Assembly (NCBI GenBank): GCA_041182645.1
Contig: JBEGNG010000025.1
Span: 1-29,198, forward strand
Length of the DNA stretch: 29,198 nt
Direction: 5' to 3'
From: Planctomycetota bacterium
Lineage (GTDB): Bacteria; Planctomycetota; Phycisphaerae; Phycisphaerales; SM1A02
Positions 10,609 through 20,453 of the stretch are shown one piece after another (position 1 is the first letter of the stretch; each line of letters starts with the position of its first letter). A program made the position numbers and the translations under genes. Under the pieces are notes generated by a model. It saw only the letters and a program-made list of their open reading frames with translations. It ran no database searches and had not been told where the DNA came from.

Positions 10609-12815
10609 TCAGGGAGTTCGGATCCGGCGCAGCCTCGCCAGCGACTCGGCGGCGGCGGCGCACCGCTGCGCCGTGGCCTCGAAGCCCCCGAACCGGACCT
10701 CGTAGAAGGAGCGGATGACGCTCCGCAGGTGGCCGGCTGCCTCCGGGGAGGTCCGGTCGAGTGCCGACGCGACGGCGAGCGGCGTCATGCCGGCGACCCG
10801 CTGCACGCCGTGGCGCGCGGCCGCCCGCAGTGCATCGAGGTAGATCCGGGCCAGTTCGCGCTCGCGCGGGCCCGCCGAGCGGCCGAGCAGGCGGCTCGTA
10901 CGGCGTCGCCTCAGCTGGAGCAGCACGATGACCACGACGGACGCCAGCAGCACCATCGCGATCGAGCCCAGCCACAGTCCACCGACCAGGCCCGAGAAAG
11001 TCTCGACGAGCCGCTGCCGGACCAGTTCCGTCGCTTCGCGCACCGCGCGAACGGGGCGCGAGAGCGCTTCGCGCGTGGAGGCCATGCGTTCCACGAACTC
11101 GGATTGGGCCTGTTCATCGAAGCTCACCACGTGCCGCGTCCAGGCGAAGTTGAGTGGGTCCCAGATCCAGCGCAGGCCATCGGCCCAGCTGCGCTGCTGC
11201 GCCTGCAGCACCTCGAGCGTGGCGGGCGGCGTGCCGTCGAAGCTCGTCCATTGTGCCGGCCCGGTCCGCACCTCGACCCACGCGTGCGCATTGGACGATC
11301 GGACGATGTACTGCGACTGGGCATCGTCGTATTCGAGGGCGATGAACCCGGCGACGACCCGCGCATCGACCCCCATCGACTGGCACATGGCGCAGAGGGC
11401 ACTGGCGAAGTACTGGCAGTGCCCGAGCTTCGACGACGAGAGGAAGTTGACGATCGGATCCTCACCGCGCCGGCGCCGGATCGAACCGAGGTCGGTCGTG
11501 TACCGGAAGTCGCCCGAGAGCAGCGCCTGCTCGAGCGCCGTGGCCACGGCGCGGTTGCGGTCCCACCGTGCCGCCGGCGACGACCGGGCCTGCTCGAGCG
11601 TGGGCACCGTGCGCCCCCTGGGACCGAAGCGCTGCCAGAATGCCTGCGCGAACGGCTCGACGCCCTCGACCGGGAAGGAGGGCAGCGGCCCCGGCTCCAC
11701 GATGCCGCCTGCGAGCGCGGCCATGTCGCCCTCGGTGGGAAACGGCTTGACGCTCAGCGCGTAGCGATCGAACTCACCGATGCGGCTCGAGGCCGACTGC
11801 AGCAGCATGGTCGATGCGTCGAGCGCGACCGTCATGCCCTCGGGTGCCTGCAGGGCGATCGGCGCGAGCACGCTGAAGACCTGGTTCGTGGCGAGCCCGC
11901 GCATCTGCACGACCTGGCGCCAGACCTGCTGTCGCCGTCGATGTACCTGCGGTTGGGCTGTTGCGGCACCTGCCAGGACTGTGAGACCGGGTCGTACGCA
12001 TCGAACACCGCACCGCGCAGCCGAAGCGGCTCGACGTGCTCGCCCGCCACGCCGTCGGGGCCGATCCACCGGACGGTCATCACCTCGGTGCGTGAGTCCT
12101 CGATCCGCTCGTCCGAGGCCAGGCTCACGCGCAGCGAGAAGCCCGCGGTGCGCGTCCTGGTCCACGACTCGCCTTCGAAGCCCTGGCGCGGGAAGATGAC
12201 GAAGACGACCGCCGCGCACGCCGCCGTGATCAGGAACGACGCGGTGCCGAACACCGCCCAGCACCGCATGGGCGTGCTGCCCACCGACGGCTCGAAGGGA
12301 GCGGGCGCAGCGCCCGACGGCCGACGCGCGTCATGGCTCGCCGCGGCGCGCTCGGAACTGGCCTGGACCCACGATGCTGCGGCGCAGACGGGCATCAGCA
12401 GCGAACCGAGCACCAAGGGCAGCCCGGCCAGCACGTCCGTGCTGTCGAGCGCCGCCACGAGCAGCAGGATCCCGCCGAGCGCGAGCACGTGGCGCTCATC
12501 GGACGCCCGGTGGCGCGCGAAGAGCTTGATCACGAGCGCCATGCCGCACAGCAGACCCACCCGCTGCACATCGGGAGGCCGTCCAGCGACGAGCGCCATG
12601 GACGCTGCCGCCACCACGAGGATCGCGATGAGCCAGTGGGCCACGCGCGTCGGGAGGCGCCGCGGCCGTGCACCCTGCGCGAGCACGCCGCTGCATGCCG
12701 CGGCGACGAGCGAGAAGGCGAGGAAGACGAAGGAATCGTCCGCGAGGCAGAACGCCGAGAGCGACAGCATCGCCGACAGCAGCACGACGGCCTGCATCGC
12801 CCGCGGCATGGTCAT
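10609..12815 (-). CDS. membrane transglutaminase-like protein (TgpA-type: DUF3488 + transglutaminase core + DUF4129), with an apparent frameshift at about 11930
   Basis: N-terminal multi-TM region ending AAVVFVIFPR and LRLRGAVFDAY in one frame. GHCQYFASA (Cys), NAHAWVEV (His), FDGT (Asp) and C-terminal FYEVRFGG are in another frame. ATGA overlap with the DUF58 gene. Confidence 0.88.
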
Positions 12816-13927
12816 GACGCGCCCCCAGCGAGCGCGCAGAGCGCATCGAGCTGCGCTGCGGACTGGTGGACCGCGCCCGCCCCGCCGACCGACGCGTCGA
12901 TGCGCCCGGGATGGATCACCACCGTCGCGGCCCGTTCGTCGCCGGGCCCGGACGGGAGCGACGAGGTGCGCGGGGCATCGAGGTCCAGTCGCGCGAGTTG
13001 CACCAGGAGCCGGTCGAGGTGTCGGACGCCGCCGGCCGGCGGCATCGGCACGCAGGGAAGCCCGTGCACGCGAAGGCTGACCTCGTGACCGAGCGCGATG
13101 GCACTCGAGGCGAGGCTGGCCGCCATGGTGATGGCGTCTTCCTCGCGCTGGCGTGCATCGACGCCGGCGGGCAGGCGACCCGCGAGGCTGGCCGTGGGTT
13201 CCGCAAGGTTCAGCACGAGCCGCAGGCGCGGATAGCTCGGGCTCGACCGCTCGATCACGGCCAGTTGGTCGCGCGATGCGGAACGCCGCCAGGCGACGTC
13301 GCGCAGGCTCGTGAGTTCCGGCGCATCGCGGACGCCGAAGAACTCCTCGCCGTGTCCGGGCCGCGATGCGGCACGCATGCCGGCCGGCCCGCGGTCCAGG
13401 AGCGCGCGCAGCCGCGGCGCCGGCACCCGCACCACGCGCGGCAGCACCGTCACGGTGGCGCGCTGCACCCAGGTGACGCGCTTGCCCACGAGGCCGAACG
13501 GGAACGAGCTCTGCGCCACGACGCCACCGAGCCGGACCTCGCCGCGGCGCGTCGGCCACCAGGTGAGTTCCGCCACGCAGCGCTCGCCCGGAGCCGCGGA
13601 CACGAGCCATGCCTCGGCCGGACCCAGGGCGGACTCTCGGATCGACACGGCGAAGGCCGGCCAGATCCAGGATGCGTTGTGCACCTCGTACCGCAAGGCC
13701 AGCGGCTGGCCGACGCGTGCATCGCGCGGGACGAGCCTGCGCACGCGGAGGGCCATCATCATCGCTCCGCTCGCGAGGCCGCTCACGACGATCATGCCCA
13801 CGACGGTGCCGACCGCCCAGACGAGCAGGTTGGACGGGCGCCAGACGACGGCCAGCAGGAGCACCGGCACGGCGATGAGGAAGACGAGCCCCCCGAGTGC
13901 CGGTCGGTAGGCCAGGCGCCGCTTCAT
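12812..13927 (-). CDS. DUF58 domain-containing protein
   Basis: Two N-terminal TM segments (with NLL motif), PTRRG, SSFPFGL, GEEFFGVR, VAWRRSA and EDAITMAASL. Confidence 0.85.
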   Translation of the reverse strand: MKRRLAYRPALGGLVFLIAVPVLLLAVVWRPSNLLVWAVGTVVGMIVVSGLASGAMMMALRVRRLVPRDARVGQPLALRYEVHNASWIWPAFAVSIRESALGPAEAWLVSAAPGERCVAELTWWPTRRGEVRLGGVVAQSSFPFGLVGKRVTWVQRATVTVLPRVVRVPAPRLRALLDRGPAGMRAASRPGHGEEFFGVRDAPELTSLRDVAWRRSASRDQLAVIERSSPSYPRLRLVLNLAEPTASLAGRLPAGVDARQREEDAITMAASLASSAIALGHEVSLRVHGLPCVPMPPAGGVRHLDRLLVQLARLDLDAPRTSSLPSGPGDERAATVVIHPGRIDASVGGAGAVHQSAAQLDALCALAGGAS

Positions 13928-15392: not shown

Positions 15393-16058
15393 ATGGACAC
15401 CACCACCACCCCATCAGCCGACGGCACACGATCCGCGCCCTGGCTGCTTGCCTCGATCGGCGCGGCGACGGTCATCATGCTGTTCTCGTGGTTCGGCGGG
15501 TTCGTCTCCTGGCACGAGGGCCCGTCGGGGCCGTTCGACGGTCCGCCCGTGCTCACGCTGTCGGGCTTCAAGCCGCACGGCACCCAGGCAGCCCATGCGG
15601 TGCACGCGCTCGCCGACCGCACGCTCTGCATCGGTCCGTACGACGTGGCGCCGTGGACGGCCTCGCGGGCGGCCGCGCTCGCACTCATGCTGCTGGGGAG
15701 CCTCGCTTCGATGCGCCTGGTGCTGGCGCGCCTGGTGGGGCTTGGTCCCCGAGCCGCAGCCTCGGCGACCTCGACGGCGGCCGCTCGCCTGGTGGCGTCC
15801 TGGATCGTCCCGATGGTCGTCCTCTTCCTGCTTGGTGCGGTCGCCCCGATGACCCTCTTGATGAGGATCGGCATCGTCTGGGCCGCCATCATGGCACTGG
15901 CATTCACCCCGTTGCAGGTTGCCCTGCGAGCGCATGCGGCGGGCACCGCCGGGGTGTTCGTCCCCACGCTCGTGCAGGTGCTCGCCGGGGCGGCCTGGCT
16001 GGTCGCCTCGGTGCAGGTCGCCGGCGCGCTGGTGGCCGCGCCCGCTCCCGCGCCCTGA
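15393..16058 (+). CDS. hypothetical integral membrane protein (about 5 TM)
   Basis: GAGG SD before ATG 15393; several long hydrophobic segments; fills the gap between flanking genes. Confidence 0.65.
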   Translation: MDTTTTPSADGTRSAPWLLASIGAATVIMLFSWFGGFVSWHEGPSGPFDGPPVLTLSGFKPHGTQAAHAVHALADRTLCIGPYDVAPWTASRAAALALMLLGSLASMRLVLARLVGLGPRAAASATSTAAARLVASWIVPMVVLFLLGAVAPMTLLMRIGIVWAAIMALAFTPLQVALRAHAAGTAGVFVPTLVQVLAGAAWLVASVQVAGALVAAPAPAP

Positions 16059-16160
16059 AGAGGATCCATTGCGCGAACCCGCGGGCGCCCGCGCGCGTCC
16101 GAGTCGGCCGGGGCGTACAGTTCCGCTCGCCTCGACCACCTTCACCACCAGGAGAACACC

Positions 16161-17546
16161 GTGGATCCACTGCGTCAGCTGATGACCGCCGTCCTTGCCC
16201 TGCCCGTCGTGGCCTGTGCCGCCGTGGGCCCCCAGCAACCCGCCGATGCCAAGCCTGCCGATGCGCCAGCCGCGCAGGCCGGCGAGGCACCGAAGGCCGA
16301 CGCCCCCAAGGCGGATGATGGCACGGAGGCGGAGATCAAGAAGCTCCGCACCGAGGCCCAGCTGCGCGAGGAGCAGCTCTCGGCGGAACTCGCCCGCGTG
16401 CGCGCCGAGAAGGCGCGCCTCGACGCCAAGATGGCGCTCAACGCCTCGCAGCAGGCTGCCGCCAACGAACCCGAAGCCACCCGCCTCGCCGGCCTGCAGC
16501 GCGAGGCCCAGCTCCGCGCCGCCGCGCTCGATGCCGAGCTCGCCGCGGGGAACGCCGAGATGGTCCGCCTCAAGGCCGAGCAGGACCTGCTCGACATGCG
16601 GCACCGCGTCAAGCTGGCGAGCATGCGCCGGGAGCAGGAAGCCCTCGCCGCCGAGAACGCGCTCACGGCCGAGAAGCGCCGCGCCGAGCAGGCACGCCTG
16701 GCCGACGAGCAGATGCGCGTCGACATCGAGTCGCGCACCATGGCCGGCCGCCTCGCGCAGCGTGATGCGCAGGAGAAGCTCCGCGAAGGCGTCGACGCGC
16801 TCGATGCCTACCCCGAGCAGCCGTTCAAGGACGGCGTCATCACCGTCAGCGACCGTCGCATCTCGCTCAACGGCCCGATCGTGAGCGGCACGGCCGACTA
16901 CGTCTGCGACCGCCTCGACTGGTTCAACAACCAGGACCGCACCAAGCCGATCTTCATCGTGATCGACAATTCGCCCGGCGGCAGCGTCATGCAGGGCTAC
17001 CGCATCGTGAAGGCGATCGAGACGAGCGATGCCCCCGTGCACGTGATCGTGAAGAGCTTCGCCGCCAGCATGGCCGCGACGATCGCCACGCTCGCGCCGC
17101 ACAGCTACGCCTACCCCAACGCGATCATCCTGCACCACCAGATGTCCACCGGCATCTCGGGCAACATGACCGACATCGAGCAGGAAGTGAAGTCGGCGCA
17201 GGAGTGGGAACGCCGCCTCGCCGAGCCGATCGCCCGCAAGATGGGCATCTCGATGGCCGAGTTCAAGGAGCGCATGTACAAGGCGCGCAAGACCGGCGAC
17301 TGGGATGAGTTCGCCGACAACGCGGTGAAGCTCAAGTGGATCGACCACGTGGTCAACGAGATCCGCGAGGAAGGCATCCGCCGCAAGCCGAGCACCGCAC
17401 CGGCCGCACCGATGTGGGGCATGTTCGGCGTCAGCATGAAGCAGGACGAACAGGGCCGGCCGTACATGAGCCTGCCCCCGCTCGATCCGTACGACTACTA
17501 CTTCATGGTGAATCCGCGCGGCTTCTACCGCATCGAAGGCCGCTGA
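16161..17546 (+). CDS. ClpP-family (S14) serine protease with signal peptide and long coiled-coil N-terminal extension
   Basis: AGGAG SD before GTG. DNSPGGSV, FAASMA (Ser), LHHQ (His), GNMTDIE handle motif and GDW...AVKLKWID (Asp). Hydrophobic N-terminus and an Ala/Glu/Arg-rich heptad region. Confidence 0.88.
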   Translation: MDPLRQLMTAVLALPVVACAAVGPQQPADAKPADAPAAQAGEAPKADAPKADDGTEAEIKKLRTEAQLREEQLSAELARVRAEKARLDAKMALNASQQAAANEPEATRLAGLQREAQLRAAALDAELAAGNAEMVRLKAEQDLLDMRHRVKLASMRREQEALAAENALTAEKRRAEQARLADEQMRVDIESRTMAGRLAQRDAQEKLREGVDALDAYPEQPFKDGVITVSDRRISLNGPIVSGTADYVCDRLDWFNNQDRTKPIFIVIDNSPGGSVMQGYRIVKAIETSDAPVHVIVKSFAASMAATIATLAPHSYAYPNAIILHHQMSTGISGNMTDIEQEVKSAQEWERRLAEPIARKMGISMAEFKERMYKARKTGDWDEFADNAVKLKWIDHVVNEIREEGIRRKPSTAPAAPMWGMFGVSMKQDEQGRPYMSLPPLDPYDYYFMVNPRGFYRIEGR

Positions 17547-17580
17547 ACGGCCGATTCACGGATCCATGCCGGACCCATGC

Positions 17581-17617
17581 ACCGGGCGGCGCCGCAAGGC
17601 GTCGCCCGGTTCTCGTT
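17581..17617. terminator. hairpin between convergent ClpP-like gene and leuS (possible bidirectional terminator)
   Basis: 13-bp stem ACCGGGCGGCGCC / GGCGTCGCCCGGT (one G-U pair on the + strand RNA) with a GCAA tetraloop, followed by TCTCGTT. Confidence 0.6.
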
Positions 17618-17671
17618 GGGGCACGGTCCACCGAATCCACGGCGCATCAACGGACGGGGCGGCGACCGTGA

Positions 17672-20453
17672 TCAGAGCACCAGGTTCACCATGCGGCCCG
17701 GCACCACGATCACCTTGCGCGGGGTCTTGCCCGCCAGGTGCGGCAGCACGTCGGCGTGGCCGAGCGCGATCGCCTCGACCTGTGCGGCATCGGCCTTCGT
17801 CGGCACCATGATGCGGGCCCGGACCTTGCCCATGACCTGCACGGCGATCTCGACCTCGTCGTCGACGAGCATCGATGGGTCGGCGAGCGGCCACGGTGCG
17901 TGCACGACGAACCCCGACCCGCCGAGCTTCGCCCAGAGTTCCTCGGCGGCGTGCGGCGCGAACGGCGCCAGGATCCGGACGAAACGCTCGAGCTGGGCGT
18001 GCGTCAGGCCGCCGTCGGCCGGGTCCTTCATCTCCTGCGGGCGCGTCGCCGCATTGACGAATTCGATCATCGAGGCGATCGCGGTGTTGAAGGCGAGCTT
18101 GTCGATGTCCGCGGTCACCTTGTGCACGGTGCGGTGCAGCAGGCGCTCGATGGCCGGGTCGGGCTGTCGCGCCGTCAGCAGGCCGCCGGTGCGCTCGTCG
18201 ACCGCCAGGCGCCAGGCCCGCTGCAGGAACCGGTGCACGCCCGCGATGTCGCGCGTGTTCCAGGGCTTGCTCGCCTCGAGCGGACCCATCGACATCTCGT
18301 AGAGCCGGAAGGTGTCGGCGCCGTATTCGGCGATGACATCATCGGGATTGATGACGTTGCGAAGGCTCTTCGACATCTTCGCGATCACCTGCGTGACCGG
18401 TCCCCCGCCGCGCTCATGGTGGCCGCCGTCGCGCTCCTCCACCTGGTCCACCGCAGGCCGTGAGCATGCCCTGGTGGAAGAGCCGGCCGAAGGGTTCGGG
18501 CGTGCCCACATGGCCCAGGTCGAAGAGGACCTTGTGCCAGAAGCGCGCGTACAGGAGGTGCAGCACCGCGTGCTCGGCACCGCCCACGTACAGGTCGACG
18601 CCGCCGGCGTGCAGGCTGCCGTCGCTGCGCTGGCTCTGCAGCCAGTAGCGCTCGGCACCATCCGACAGCATGCGCGACCCATTCGCCGGATCGCAGTACC
18701 GAAGGTAGTACCAGCACGAACCTGCCCAGCCGGGCATGGTGTTCGTCTCGCGGCGCACGCGCGTGGCCGGCGGCAGCAGCGCGGGATCCACCCCTGCCTC
18801 GCCGGCGGTCGTCTCGACCCATGCCGTGGCCTTGCCGAGCGGCGGCACCGGCACGTCGCTCTCGATCGGCTTGTAGTCGGCGAGCTCCGGGAGCACCACG
18901 GGCAGCGCTTGCTCGGACACGGGGTAGTGCCGGCCAGCCTCGTCGTAGACGATCGGGAACGGCTCGCCCCAGTAGCGCTGCCGGCTGAAGAGCCAGTCGC
19001 GCAGCTTGTAGTTCACGCGGCGGGCACCACGCCCCGCCTTGGCGAGCCAGTCGATGACCGATGCCTTGGCCCGGGTGGTGTCGAGCCCATCGATCGTGAG
19101 CGACGGCCCGCTGCTGTTGCACGCGACGCCGTGGCCCGCGGTCGCCGCGGACCCATCGAAGGGCTGCCCCGCGATCTCGACGACCTGGCGTACCGGCAGG
19201 CCGAACGCCGCGGCGAACTCGAAGTCGCGCTCATCATGCGCGGGCACGGCCATGATCGCTCCGGTGCCGTACCCCATGAGCACGTAGTCGGCCGTCCAGA
19301 CGGGAATCGACGCGCCGGTCGCCGGATTCACCGCACGAAGGCCGGTGTCGACGCCGGTCTTCTGCTTCGTGTCCGCCTGGCGGTCGACGTCGCTGCGGTT
19401 CGCGGCGACCGCCGCGTACGCACGCACGGCCTCCGCGCGCGCGCCGCCGGCGTCGATCGCGGCCTTGACCAGCGGGTGCTCGGGCGCCACGACCATGTAG
19501 GTCGCACCGAAGAGCGTGTCCGGGCGCGTGGTGAAGACCCGCAGCGCGCCGAACCCCGCGACCTCGAAGTCGATCTCCGCCCCTTCGCTGCGGCCGATCC
19601 ACTCCGCCTGCATCGTCCTGGTGCTGTCGGGCCAGTCGACGAGGTCGAGGTCGGACAGCAGGCGCTCGGCGTAGGCCGTGATGCGGAACATCCACTGCCG
19701 CAGCGGCATGCGCAGCACCGGGTAGCCGCCGCGCTCGCTCTTGCCGTCGATGACTTCCTCGTTGGCGAGCACGGTGCCGAGCTTCGGGCACCAGTTGACG
19801 GTCTGCTCGCCGAGGTAGGCGAGGCGGTGACGGTCGAGGAACGCGCACCGCGCGGCATCGTCGAGCGTGGACCAGGCCTTGCCGTCGACCGTGCGACGGC
19901 CCGCGGCGAGATCGGCCTCGAGCTCCGCGATGGGACGGGCGCGGCCGGCCTCGGCGTCGTACCAGGCCCCGTAGCACTGCAGCCAGATCCACTGCGTCCA
20001 CCGGTAGTAGTCGGGGTCGATCGTCGCGAACTCGCGCGACCAGTCGTAGCAGAAGCCGAAGCGCTGCAGCTGGCGACGGTAGGTGTCGATCGCCTTGCGC
20101 GTCGTCACCGCAGGATGCACGCCGGTCTGCACCGCGTACTGCTCGGCAGGCAGGCCGAACGCATCCCAGCCCATCGGGTGGAGGACGTTGAAGCCCTGCA
20201 TGCGTCGCGCGCGGCAGATGATGTCGGTGGCGATGTAGCCCAGCGGATGGCCCACGTGCAGGCCCGCTCCCGATGGGTACGGGAACATGTCGAGGCAGTA
20301 GAACTTCGGCCGCGAGCCATCGAAGCCGGCGTCGCCGGGGTTCGGCGTGCGGTAGGCCCCTGCCGCGTCCCACGCCCCCTGCCAGCGCAGCTCGAGCTCG
20401 TTGGCCATCGCGGCGCCGTAGCGGAAGGGTGTCTCGTTGCGTGGCTCGTCCAT
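17672..20453 (-). CDS. leuS: leucine--tRNA ligase, interrupted by an apparent frameshift at about 18455
   Basis: [14 protein letters not shown] (HIGH), CP1 editing motifs ([19 protein letters not shown]), [20 protein letters not shown] and FHQGM are in one frame. KMSKS, NTAIASM and VPGRMVNLV are in another. Confidence 0.96.

Follow-up and report, generated by a model that had tools for sequence, protein, structure and literature searches.

Can a protease of the ClpP type work outside the cytoplasm, and without an ATPase? ClpP is among the best-studied of proteases and a target of antibiotics and cancer drugs, and its gate is opened and fed by an AAA+ unfoldase of the cytoplasm or of organelles. 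The question is raised by a gene at 16161 to 17546 of a contig from a planctomycete of the Phycisphaerales (GCA_041182645.1, JBEGNG010000025.1; 29,198 bp, about 70% G+C), the whole of which we call the window and which forms part of a metagenome-assembled genome (MAG) of 2.26 Mb and 84% completeness. An earlier reading of the DNA (the original prediction) had proposed an exported ClpP with a coiled-coil stalk and an aromatic C-terminal tail. We found all of the sequence features that it listed where it had placed them, and we consider that the protein is probably (with a rough probability of 0.55) a serine peptidase of the ClpP type (MEROPS S14) that is exported, assembles into rings and does without ATP. 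Its parts are as follows.

16161-17546, forward strand: whole open reading frame (ORF) of 461 amino acids (P0001), a putatively exported ClpP-type protease; G+C content at third codon positions (GC3) 0.92, identical proteins on other contigs
16161-16217, forward strand: predicted signal peptide, residues 1-19, with Arg5 in the n-region, the h-region LMTAVLALPVV and then VVAC or ACA-A; from the sequence and Kyte-Doolittle hydropathy
16218-16343, forward strand: disordered linker rich in Ala, Pro, Asp and Lys, residues 20-61; predicted local distance difference test (pLDDT) score below 50 in the AlphaFold2 (AF2) model
16344-16787, forward strand: single long helix of coiled-coil type, the putative stalk, residues 62-209; assigned as helix by DSSP on the AF2 model
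16836-17372, forward strand: ClpP core with handle and without N-terminal axial loops, residues 226-404; from Pfam, AF2 (pLDDT 93-98) and Foldseek
17067-17069, forward strand: catalytic Ser303 (in FAASMA), matching the nucleophile of ClpP in the alignment; conserved in 91 of 93 family members
17136-17138, forward strand: catalytic His326 (second His of LHHQ), matching the His-Gln of ClpP IHQP in the alignment; conserved in 91 of 93
17298-17300, forward strand: catalytic Asp380 (in GDW); Asp in 80 of 93, Asn in 8, Glu in 3
17355-17390, forward strand: C-terminal extension (residues 399-410), conserved at I401, E403 and P410; the model predicts that it lies on helices B and C of the neighbouring subunit
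17436-17534, forward strand: conserved C-terminal tail, residues 426-458; from the alignment, AF2 pLDDT 75-88

Sequence comparison makes it statistically solid that the protein has a true ClpP-type (MEROPS S14) core. This carries a Ser-His-Asp triad at the canonical positions. The Pfam family CLP_protease (PF00574) matches residues 230-374 with an E-value of 8.2e-24 (84.9 bits against a cut-off of 20.2), and sequence searches of the PDB match ClpP chains only, the best with an E-value of 2.9e-14. With Foldseek, solved ClpPs rank first (template modelling (TM) scores by target of 0.75-0.84, root-mean-square deviations of 2-3 Å over 170-180 columns, 24-33% identity), and of the reviewed UniProt models canonical ClpPs alone match, only over residues 231 to about 416. 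The AF2 model, built from 93 diverse homologues and with a mean pLDDT of 83.7, runs from a hydrophobic helix (residues 4-18) through disorder to residue 61, a helix (62-209), the core (226-404) and a weak linker (405-425) to a structured tail. The core contains the motifs NSPGG (270-274), GNMTDIE (334-340) and GDW, the last of which holds Asp380; from our own alignment to the Escherichia coli sequence, we take this residue to be the equivalent of ClpP Asp171. Ser303 and His326 are 23 residues apart, and His325 is kept in 91 of the 93 family members as well. With a mean top-residue frequency of 0.66 the core is the best conserved of the four segments compared (core, tail, helix and linker). None of the NCBIfam ClpP equivalogs is reached (43-68 bits against cut-offs of 228-361), and this includes the models of canonical ATP-dependent ClpP TIGR00493 (52.3 bits against 308.6) and PRK00277 (67.2 against 249).

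The Pfam match spans positions 15-160 of the 182 in the hidden Markov model (HMM) and the structural alignments begin at residue 231. Because the HMM match begins only at position 15, the N-terminal axial gating loops of ClpP are, on this evidence, absent, and the long helix leads directly into the core. The ClpP domain recognised in the original prediction thus stands as regards the S14 core and the triad, but it is not complete, as had been supposed, since the N-terminal gate is missing.

The N-terminus reads M/VDPLRQLMTAVLALPVVAC-AA, in which VVAC resembles a lipobox and the same residues also suit a signal peptidase I site (A-C-A | A). An N-terminal h-region lies inside the first 30 residues in 113 of the 135 family representatives (84%), according to a crude Kyte-Doolittle hydropathy criterion (11-residue maximum). 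The family signal peptides typically have a basic residue, an h-region of 11-15 residues and an end of AXA type (...AWA-Q, ...ARA-D, ...AQA-T). The hydropathy maximum is 2.57 in the window protein against 1.1-1.2 in the two canonical tandem ClpPs of the same genome, neither of which has a comparable N-terminal signal. Since the pattern is conserved while the sequence diverges across the family, it argues for a working Sec-type signal peptide and for export of the protein, as had been suggested. The lipobox fared less well: its Cys is conserved in the nearest clades only (about 60% identity or more) and is missing in most family members. Because most of these end their signal peptide in AXA without Cys, lipid anchoring may be an option of this clade, possible for the window protein, and not a trait of the family. 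Six homologues (P0036, P0041, P0042, P0045, P0048 and P0055) carry Arg-Arg followed by hydrophobic residues in the n-region (for example ...ARRLAL...), and some lineages may possibly export the folded protein by the twin-arginine translocation (Tat) route. For the window protein we rejected Tat export, as it has Arg-Gln at this place and most homologues have no Arg-Arg.

Independence of ATP, also part of the original prediction, is in keeping with the gene neighbourhoods. These are wholly different among three deep lineages, and all-against-all clustering of the ORFs around 80 homologous loci revealed no recurrent partner and no neighbour cluster in more than about 7 loci, the sole recurring ORFs being shadow ORFs of the gene itself. 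Neither the three lineages nor the 80 loci have a partner ATPase gene, or any other neighbour, conserved beside family members. As conserved neighbours are lacking, the protein would therefore act alone or with partners encoded elsewhere.

Between the signal peptide and the core lies the putative stalk, a helix of 148 amino acids rich in Ala, Glu, Arg, Leu and Gln, which would measure about 22 nm as an alpha-helix and is unbroken in the AF2 model, with pLDDT above 90 from about residue 110. The linker that precedes it is the least conserved segment (mean top-residue frequency 0.18) and differs in length among homologues. The helix has a frequency of 0.30 against 0.66 for the core, and across the family it retains its character but neither its sequence nor its length: close homologues differ by insertion or deletion blocks of 25-31 amino acids, and in the family representatives the signal peptide and the SPGG motif are 116 to 484 residues apart (median 256). 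A Pfam scan of residues 20-215 alone gave no match. A raw heptad analysis of the single sequence gave no clear signal, and the alignment profile of conserved hydrophobic residues has weak heptad harmonics (7/2 and 7/3) at periods of 3.55 and 2.3, a weak indication of the kind that would be expected of a sparse, Ala-rich coiled coil. In the original prediction the coiled coil would replace the ATPase as gate, substrate catcher or envelope-spanning tether. Because the helix is poorly conserved in sequence and variable in length, a spacer or oligomerisation stalk appears to fit better than a specific binding site. One riverine metatranscriptome contig joins 16369 to 16631 and so lacks 261 nt of the stalk, an in-frame gap of 87 codons; the joint shares 7 letters, and the contig reflects either a strain whose stalk is shorter or a mis-assembly across repeats inside the coiled coil.

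The aromatic tail comprises about 35 amino acids, of which residues 438-457 read LPPLDPYDYYFMVNPRGFYR. Its core motif over these residues, L-P-x-L-x-P-[FY]-D-x-[YW]-[FY]-[LIM]-[YH]-[ND]-P-x-x-[YF]-Y-R, is kept family-wide, and Asp445 (17493-17495) is invariant in all 93 members. The mean top-residue frequency of the tail is 0.53, a Pfam scan of residues 405-461 alone found no match, and AF2 models it as three short strands (pLDDT 75-88) behind the weak linker 405-425. A disulfide between Cys249 and Cys446 was considered as a possible marker of the periplasm, both residues being kept in 13 of 15 close homologues. The window protein has Tyr446, and co-occurrence in the diverse set is weak (both in 5 sequences, one only in 12 and 10).

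Four copies of residues 216-461, modelled on an alignment of our own, are predicted to associate. The interaction score ipSAE is 0.64 (0.64, 0.67 and 0.53 in three runs) against 0.00 for the best of three controls, the partner has a pLDDT of 81 or more, and at least 66% of the contacts are common to the runs. In calibration, 20 of 30 proteins solved as one-chain pairs attained this mark, as did 1 of 23 that had been solved as single chains; with four copies and our own alignment, these counts apply only roughly here. The modelled contacts run head-to-tail via two faces, a side-by-side packing like that of ClpP rings. Face A consists of helices 246-257, 277-288 and 341-352 with tail residues 440-445, and face B of the strand ends 269-272, 298-302, 318-324 and 376-384 with residues 399-410 and the tail (426-455). 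The cores are thus predicted to pack through the same two faces as ClpP rings, in line with the compartmental protease first envisaged. That the aromatic tail would be free was not borne out by the model, which places it as a clasp between subunits, beside the neighbour's active-site loops. Residues 399-404 contact residues 249-257 and 284-288 (helices B and C) of the next subunit, and Asp445 and Tyr444 touch Asn270, Phe300 and Ile322 of the neighbour, the first two of which sit in the loops that bear the oxyanion hole and the nucleophile Ser303. By our own alignment to E. coli ClpP, residues 399-404 presumably fall at the H site, the apical cleft between subunits. We likewise take the H-site tyrosine (Y62 in E. 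coli, Y63 in Staphylococcus aureus) to correspond to Val267, a position held by Val in 80 of the 93 members. The H site of ClpP is the docking place of the IGF loops of ClpX and ClpA and of the acyldepsipeptide (ADEP) antibiotics, and the mutation Y63A of its tyrosine opens the S. aureus enzyme (PMC9035409, our background source for the ClpP gate, H sites and handle).

In the mechanism that we propose, a Sec-type signal peptide would direct the protein across the cytoplasmic membrane, and the lipobox-like VVAC could add a lipid anchor in this clade. In the assembled ring, residues 399-404 would rest against helices B and C of the next subunit, the place at which ClpP binds AAA+ IGF loops and ADEP, and the loop around Asp445 would reach the neighbour's oxyanion and nucleophile loops, the C-terminal extension acting as a clasp. 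The protein's own tail would then hold the ring together, and perhaps keep it open or active, in place of an ATPase. As a ring without an N-terminal gate, it would admit peptides or unfolded chains without ATP and degrade them in the periplasm, folded proteins being spared; ClpP that lacks its N-terminal residues can degrade unfolded substrates independently of an ATPase. The helices would emerge from the ring near its axial face. Their conserved length class, variable sequence and modular insertions suggest that they make up a coiled-coil stalk, of which the length would matter and not the sequence, and which would space the ring from a membrane anchor or bundle the subunits. Taken together these steps would define a new class of extracytoplasmic, ATP-independent ClpP machine: an exported, gate-less ring, whose C-terminal extension occupies the AAA+/ADEP clefts and reaches the neighbour's active site as activator or clasp, and whose seven helices make a coiled-coil stalk, about 22 nm long, by which the ring is positioned or bundled in the envelope. 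This full picture we put forward tentatively, at somewhat less than even odds.

A number of points weigh against the reading as an exported, ring-forming peptidase. Export is read from sequence alone, and the heptad periodicity of the stalk is weak. Since solved ClpP rings exist, the result of the oligomer modelling may reflect the memory that the model has of them, and so indicate likeness to these rings rather than binding. The mapping of residues 399-404 to the H site depends on our own alignment to E. coli ClpP. By the same alignment, the Asp-Arg oligomerisation sensor beside the catalytic Asp of ClpP is presumably not conserved (TGD in place of DRD), and the handle motif has NxT instead of QxT; for these two reasons a tetradecamer is not assured. 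Seven helices leaving the axial face could also block the pore instead of leaving it open.

The protein belongs to a sizeable family. A word-indexed search returned more than 2,000 full-length relatives, and an exhaustive HMMER scan of 1.84 billion cluster representatives found 197 clusters (at 50% identity) with E-values of at most 1e-30, clearly apart from ordinary ClpPs, 391 clusters at 1e-10 and 3,924 at 1e-3. According to a pattern scan of one genome per species, at least 498 genomes encode the family. The carriers belong to the Planctomycetota, Verrucomicrobiota, Kiritimatiellota, Lentisphaerota and Elusimicrobiota, with a few further bins that are probably mislabelled; two of the carrier genomes, CP087563.1 and CP170506.1, are complete chromosomes, one of them labelled a MAG. 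Within phyla the family is sparse (2-5%), being present in 5 of 151 sampled Planctomycetota, in 6 of 121 sampled genomes of the phylum of an Elusimicrobia carrier and in 3 of 151 of the phylum of a Chthoniobacteraceae carrier, each count including the seed genome. In a quick maximum-likelihood tree of core and tail the sequences group largely by phylum, the Elusimicrobiota lying on one side of a branch, and the fewest changes of phylum label on the tree number 8, against a mean of 25.9 after shuffling. Because of this grouping, inheritance within lineages accompanied by frequent loss appears to fit better than rampant transfer. Two carrier genomes (G152 and G154) each gave one weak second match to the family profile (E-value about 1e-21, profile positions about 243-442), which are probably the ordinary ClpPs of those genomes.

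The architecture forms a single fold cluster in AlphaFold DB, named only “ATP-dependent Clp protease proteolytic subunit”, a label that is probably wrong in its ATP-dependent part. Full-text literature searches turned up no paper that deals with a ClpP exported or in the periplasm, or with this architecture in Planctomycetes or Verrucomicrobia, nor did we find a curated model for the family, in agreement with the view of the original prediction that the architecture is uncharacterised. No PADLOC model matches the protein, and we set aside a defence system on that ground.

Four other explanations can be set against the evidence. The one that survives best, although we think it unlikely, is a protease that serves to acquire nutrients, secreted or displayed on the surface, whose stalk would present the ring beyond the outer membrane or in the medium. 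The sparse occurrence of this accessory gene in polymer-degrading lineages of the Planctomycetota, Verrucomicrobiota and Elusimicrobiota would suit such a role, as would a stalk of variable length, which is typical of displayed proteins, and one family representative is named as from Pseudobdellovibrionaceae. However, neither a known secretion-system signal nor conserved secretion genes were found nearby, and a chamber that admits only unfolded chains would be ill-suited to native extracellular proteins.

Close behind it, and in our view a little less likely again, stands a membrane-proximal, peptide-clearing protease analogous to SppA, anchored by a lipid or an uncleaved signal anchor and degrading peptides released from the membrane. 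SppA too is an extracytoplasmic, ATP-independent ring of the ClpP fold with an N-terminal anchor, and the conservation of VVAC in this clade and a weak similarity to the SppA domain (TIGR00706, 34 bits) point the same way. Against this, most members have cleavable AXA-type signal peptides without Cys, a flexible linker followed by a 22-nm helix would keep the catalytic ring far from the membrane, and the catalytic machinery is Ser-His-Asp and not the Ser-Lys dyad of S49. The genome also has a good SppA of its own, encoded separately (PF01343, 137 bits, contig C262), and we rejected replacement of SppA on this account.

That the protein is a cytoplasmic ClpP paralogue working with ClpX or ClpC, its hydrophobic N-terminus being an inward tether or the product of a mis-called start, we regard as very improbable. 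The genome does have canonical Clp components, the two tandem ClpPs, and some gene callers begin the protein 7 residues downstream, giving versions of 454 amino acids, but a Shine-Dalgarno box backs the GTG at 16161, and the signal-peptide pattern is conserved despite the divergence of the sequence. Furthermore, the N-terminal loops that ClpX and ClpA engage are absent, and the model predicts that the extension of the protein itself covers the docking cleft. A canonical ClpB of 880 amino acids (L008, 5278-7920, forward strand) does end 80 bp upstream of a family member on the same strand in one planctomycete lineage. We rejected this ClpB as a partner and consider the adjacency a coincidence, since its N-terminus is of the ordinary cytoplasmic kind and its place beside the gene is not conserved in other lineages. 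Least probable of all, and scarcely to be entertained, is an origin from a phage, either as a head-maturation protease that became domesticated and joined to a scaffold-like coiled coil or as what is left of a prophage. Phage models score about as well as cellular ClpP (phrog_94, 84.7 bits; NF045542, 60.3 bits) and phage protease-scaffold fusions also have long coiled coils, but NF045542 stays far under its cut-off of 120, and the coiled coil stands at the N-terminus, behind a signal peptide. The gene is surrounded by housekeeping genes, among them leuS, a Mur-ligase-type gene and one for a transglutaminase, and by none for a capsid, portal or terminase, and the tree groups the family by phylum as for cellular inheritance.

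The gene itself, as judged from its sequence and its copies, is real and intact and no assembly artefact: the GC3 matches the codon-position G+C pattern of the real genes of the host genome, its GTG start codon has a Shine-Dalgarno box, and proteins of 461 amino acids that are identical or 98-100% identical are recorded on many independent contigs, which together support this conclusion. The near-identical proteins of other assemblies carry the labels Phycisphaerales, Phycisphaerae or Planctomycetota, and the sequencing runs whose DNA contains this stretch are mostly freshwater metagenomes. Three further features flank the gene.

16148-16153, forward strand: Shine-Dalgarno box AGGAGA, 7 nt 5' of the GTG start; read in the sequence
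16116-16121, forward strand: -10-like box TACAGT, a candidate promoter put forward because an RNA-library contig starts at 16120
17582-17617, forward strand: terminator-like hairpin with a stem of 12-13 bp and a GCAA loop, followed by the T-rich TTCTCGTT; from folding

Six metatranscriptome runs from six studies contain about a third of the sampled words of a 2.4-kb stretch, and contigs from four metatranscriptome libraries (four studies) cover 16120-17555; being assembled from RNA libraries, such contigs may include DNA carry-over and give neither strand nor level. The contigs start at 16120 (X15), with one fragment (X16) ending in adapter at 16140, and they stop by about 17555 in three of the four runs. 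Upstream, none of the four libraries has coverage in the bins from 15948 to 16109, and the preceding gene is scarcely covered. A scan for the sigma-70 consensus found no promoter. The hairpin lies 36 nt past the stop codon, between the converging protease gene and leuS, with a minimum free energy of -44.2 kcal/mol and a z-score of -3.25 (17547-17625), and is a candidate bidirectional terminator which a consensus terminator scan missed. The contig start near TACAGT, the empty stretch upstream and the hairpin together suggest that the protease mRNA is monocistronic and leadered.

The upstream gene (15393-16058, forward strand) encodes a multi-pass membrane protein of 221 amino acids with no Pfam match. 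It sits inside an open frame of 710 amino acids, was missed by a longest-ORF reading, is conserved only in close relatives (loci about 85-92% identical) and has scant RNA-library coverage. Apparent frameshifts occur elsewhere on the contig, in leuS and in a gene for a TgpA-like transglutaminase, and not in the protease gene. On the reverse strand, leuS is broken into two overlapping ORFs in different frames, 18414-20453 (catalytic N-part and editing domain) and 17672-18682 (catalytic C-part and anticodon-binding domain), so that the frameshift must fall inside 18414-18682. Because a 92%-identical relative has a single open frame (L036, 5477-8983), an indel error in this MAG contig is likely. 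The transglutaminase gene, also on the reverse strand, is broken likewise into 11832-13610 (TgpA_N) and 10609-12264 (Transglut_core and DUF4129), making another frameshift or assembly indel probable within 10609-13610.

Both in its architecture and in its probable location, the family departs from a protease that is otherwise very well known. If our reading is true, a gate-less exported ClpP that uses its own tail at the ATPase/ADEP site would be a natural counterpart of the drug-activated state, and would place a novel type of periplasmic machine, for quality control or the degradation of peptides, beside DegP and SppA. The family should also be easy to test, as it involves a single gene and needs no partner.

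Among known systems, DegP and DegQ (HtrA) are functional analogues only: they too degrade unfolded periplasmic proteins in self-made compartments without ATP, but have an unrelated trypsin-like fold with PDZ domains and no sequence similarity to the window protein. The original prediction allowed that the protein might prove to be a characterised family such as NfeD or SppA. This is not the case, as models of both, and of the SDH type as well, score far under their cut-offs (NfeD PF25145, 17.9 bits against 40; SppA TIGR00706, 34.2 against 155, with no hit to PF01343; SDH-type PF01972, 17.7 against 31.3, and NF047768, 18.3 against 250). NfeD/STOPP proteases (for example 1510-N of Pyrococcus horikoshii) are similar in being membrane-associated proteases of the ClpP fold, with partners that bear coiled coils (stomatins), whereas the window protein has no internal transmembrane segments (the AF2 model contains no transmembrane helix past the signal peptide), no C-terminal OB-fold domain and no SPFH gene nearby. 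The head-maturation proteases of phages likewise have a gate-less, ATPase-free ClpP core that is often fused to coiled-coil scaffolds, but in the opposite domain order, and differ from the window protein in its signal peptide, cellular gene context and phylum-structured tree.

SppA is an extracytoplasmic, ATP-independent, self-compartmentalising ring protease of the ClpP fold with an N-terminal anchor, all of which may hold for the window protein too, and in Bacillus subtilis its own C-terminus lies in the substrate groove. However, SppA (MEROPS S49) uses a Ser-Lys dyad within a dome of eight domains, while the present family conserves His and Asp. The closest relatives are the canonical ClpPs (1tyf and 1yg6 of E. 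coli, 3sta of S. aureus and 6hwn of Thermus thermophilus), which have the same fold (TM about 0.8), the Ser-His-Asp positions, the SPGG oxyanion loop, a full-length handle helix and, as predicted here, side-by-side ring contacts in common with the window protein. Unlike them, it has a signal peptide, a Ser-His spacing of 23 rather than 25, no partner ATPase gene, a conserved C-terminal extension of about 60 amino acids with a predicted role as a clasp, and an N-terminal helix of 148 amino acids in place of the axial gating loops.

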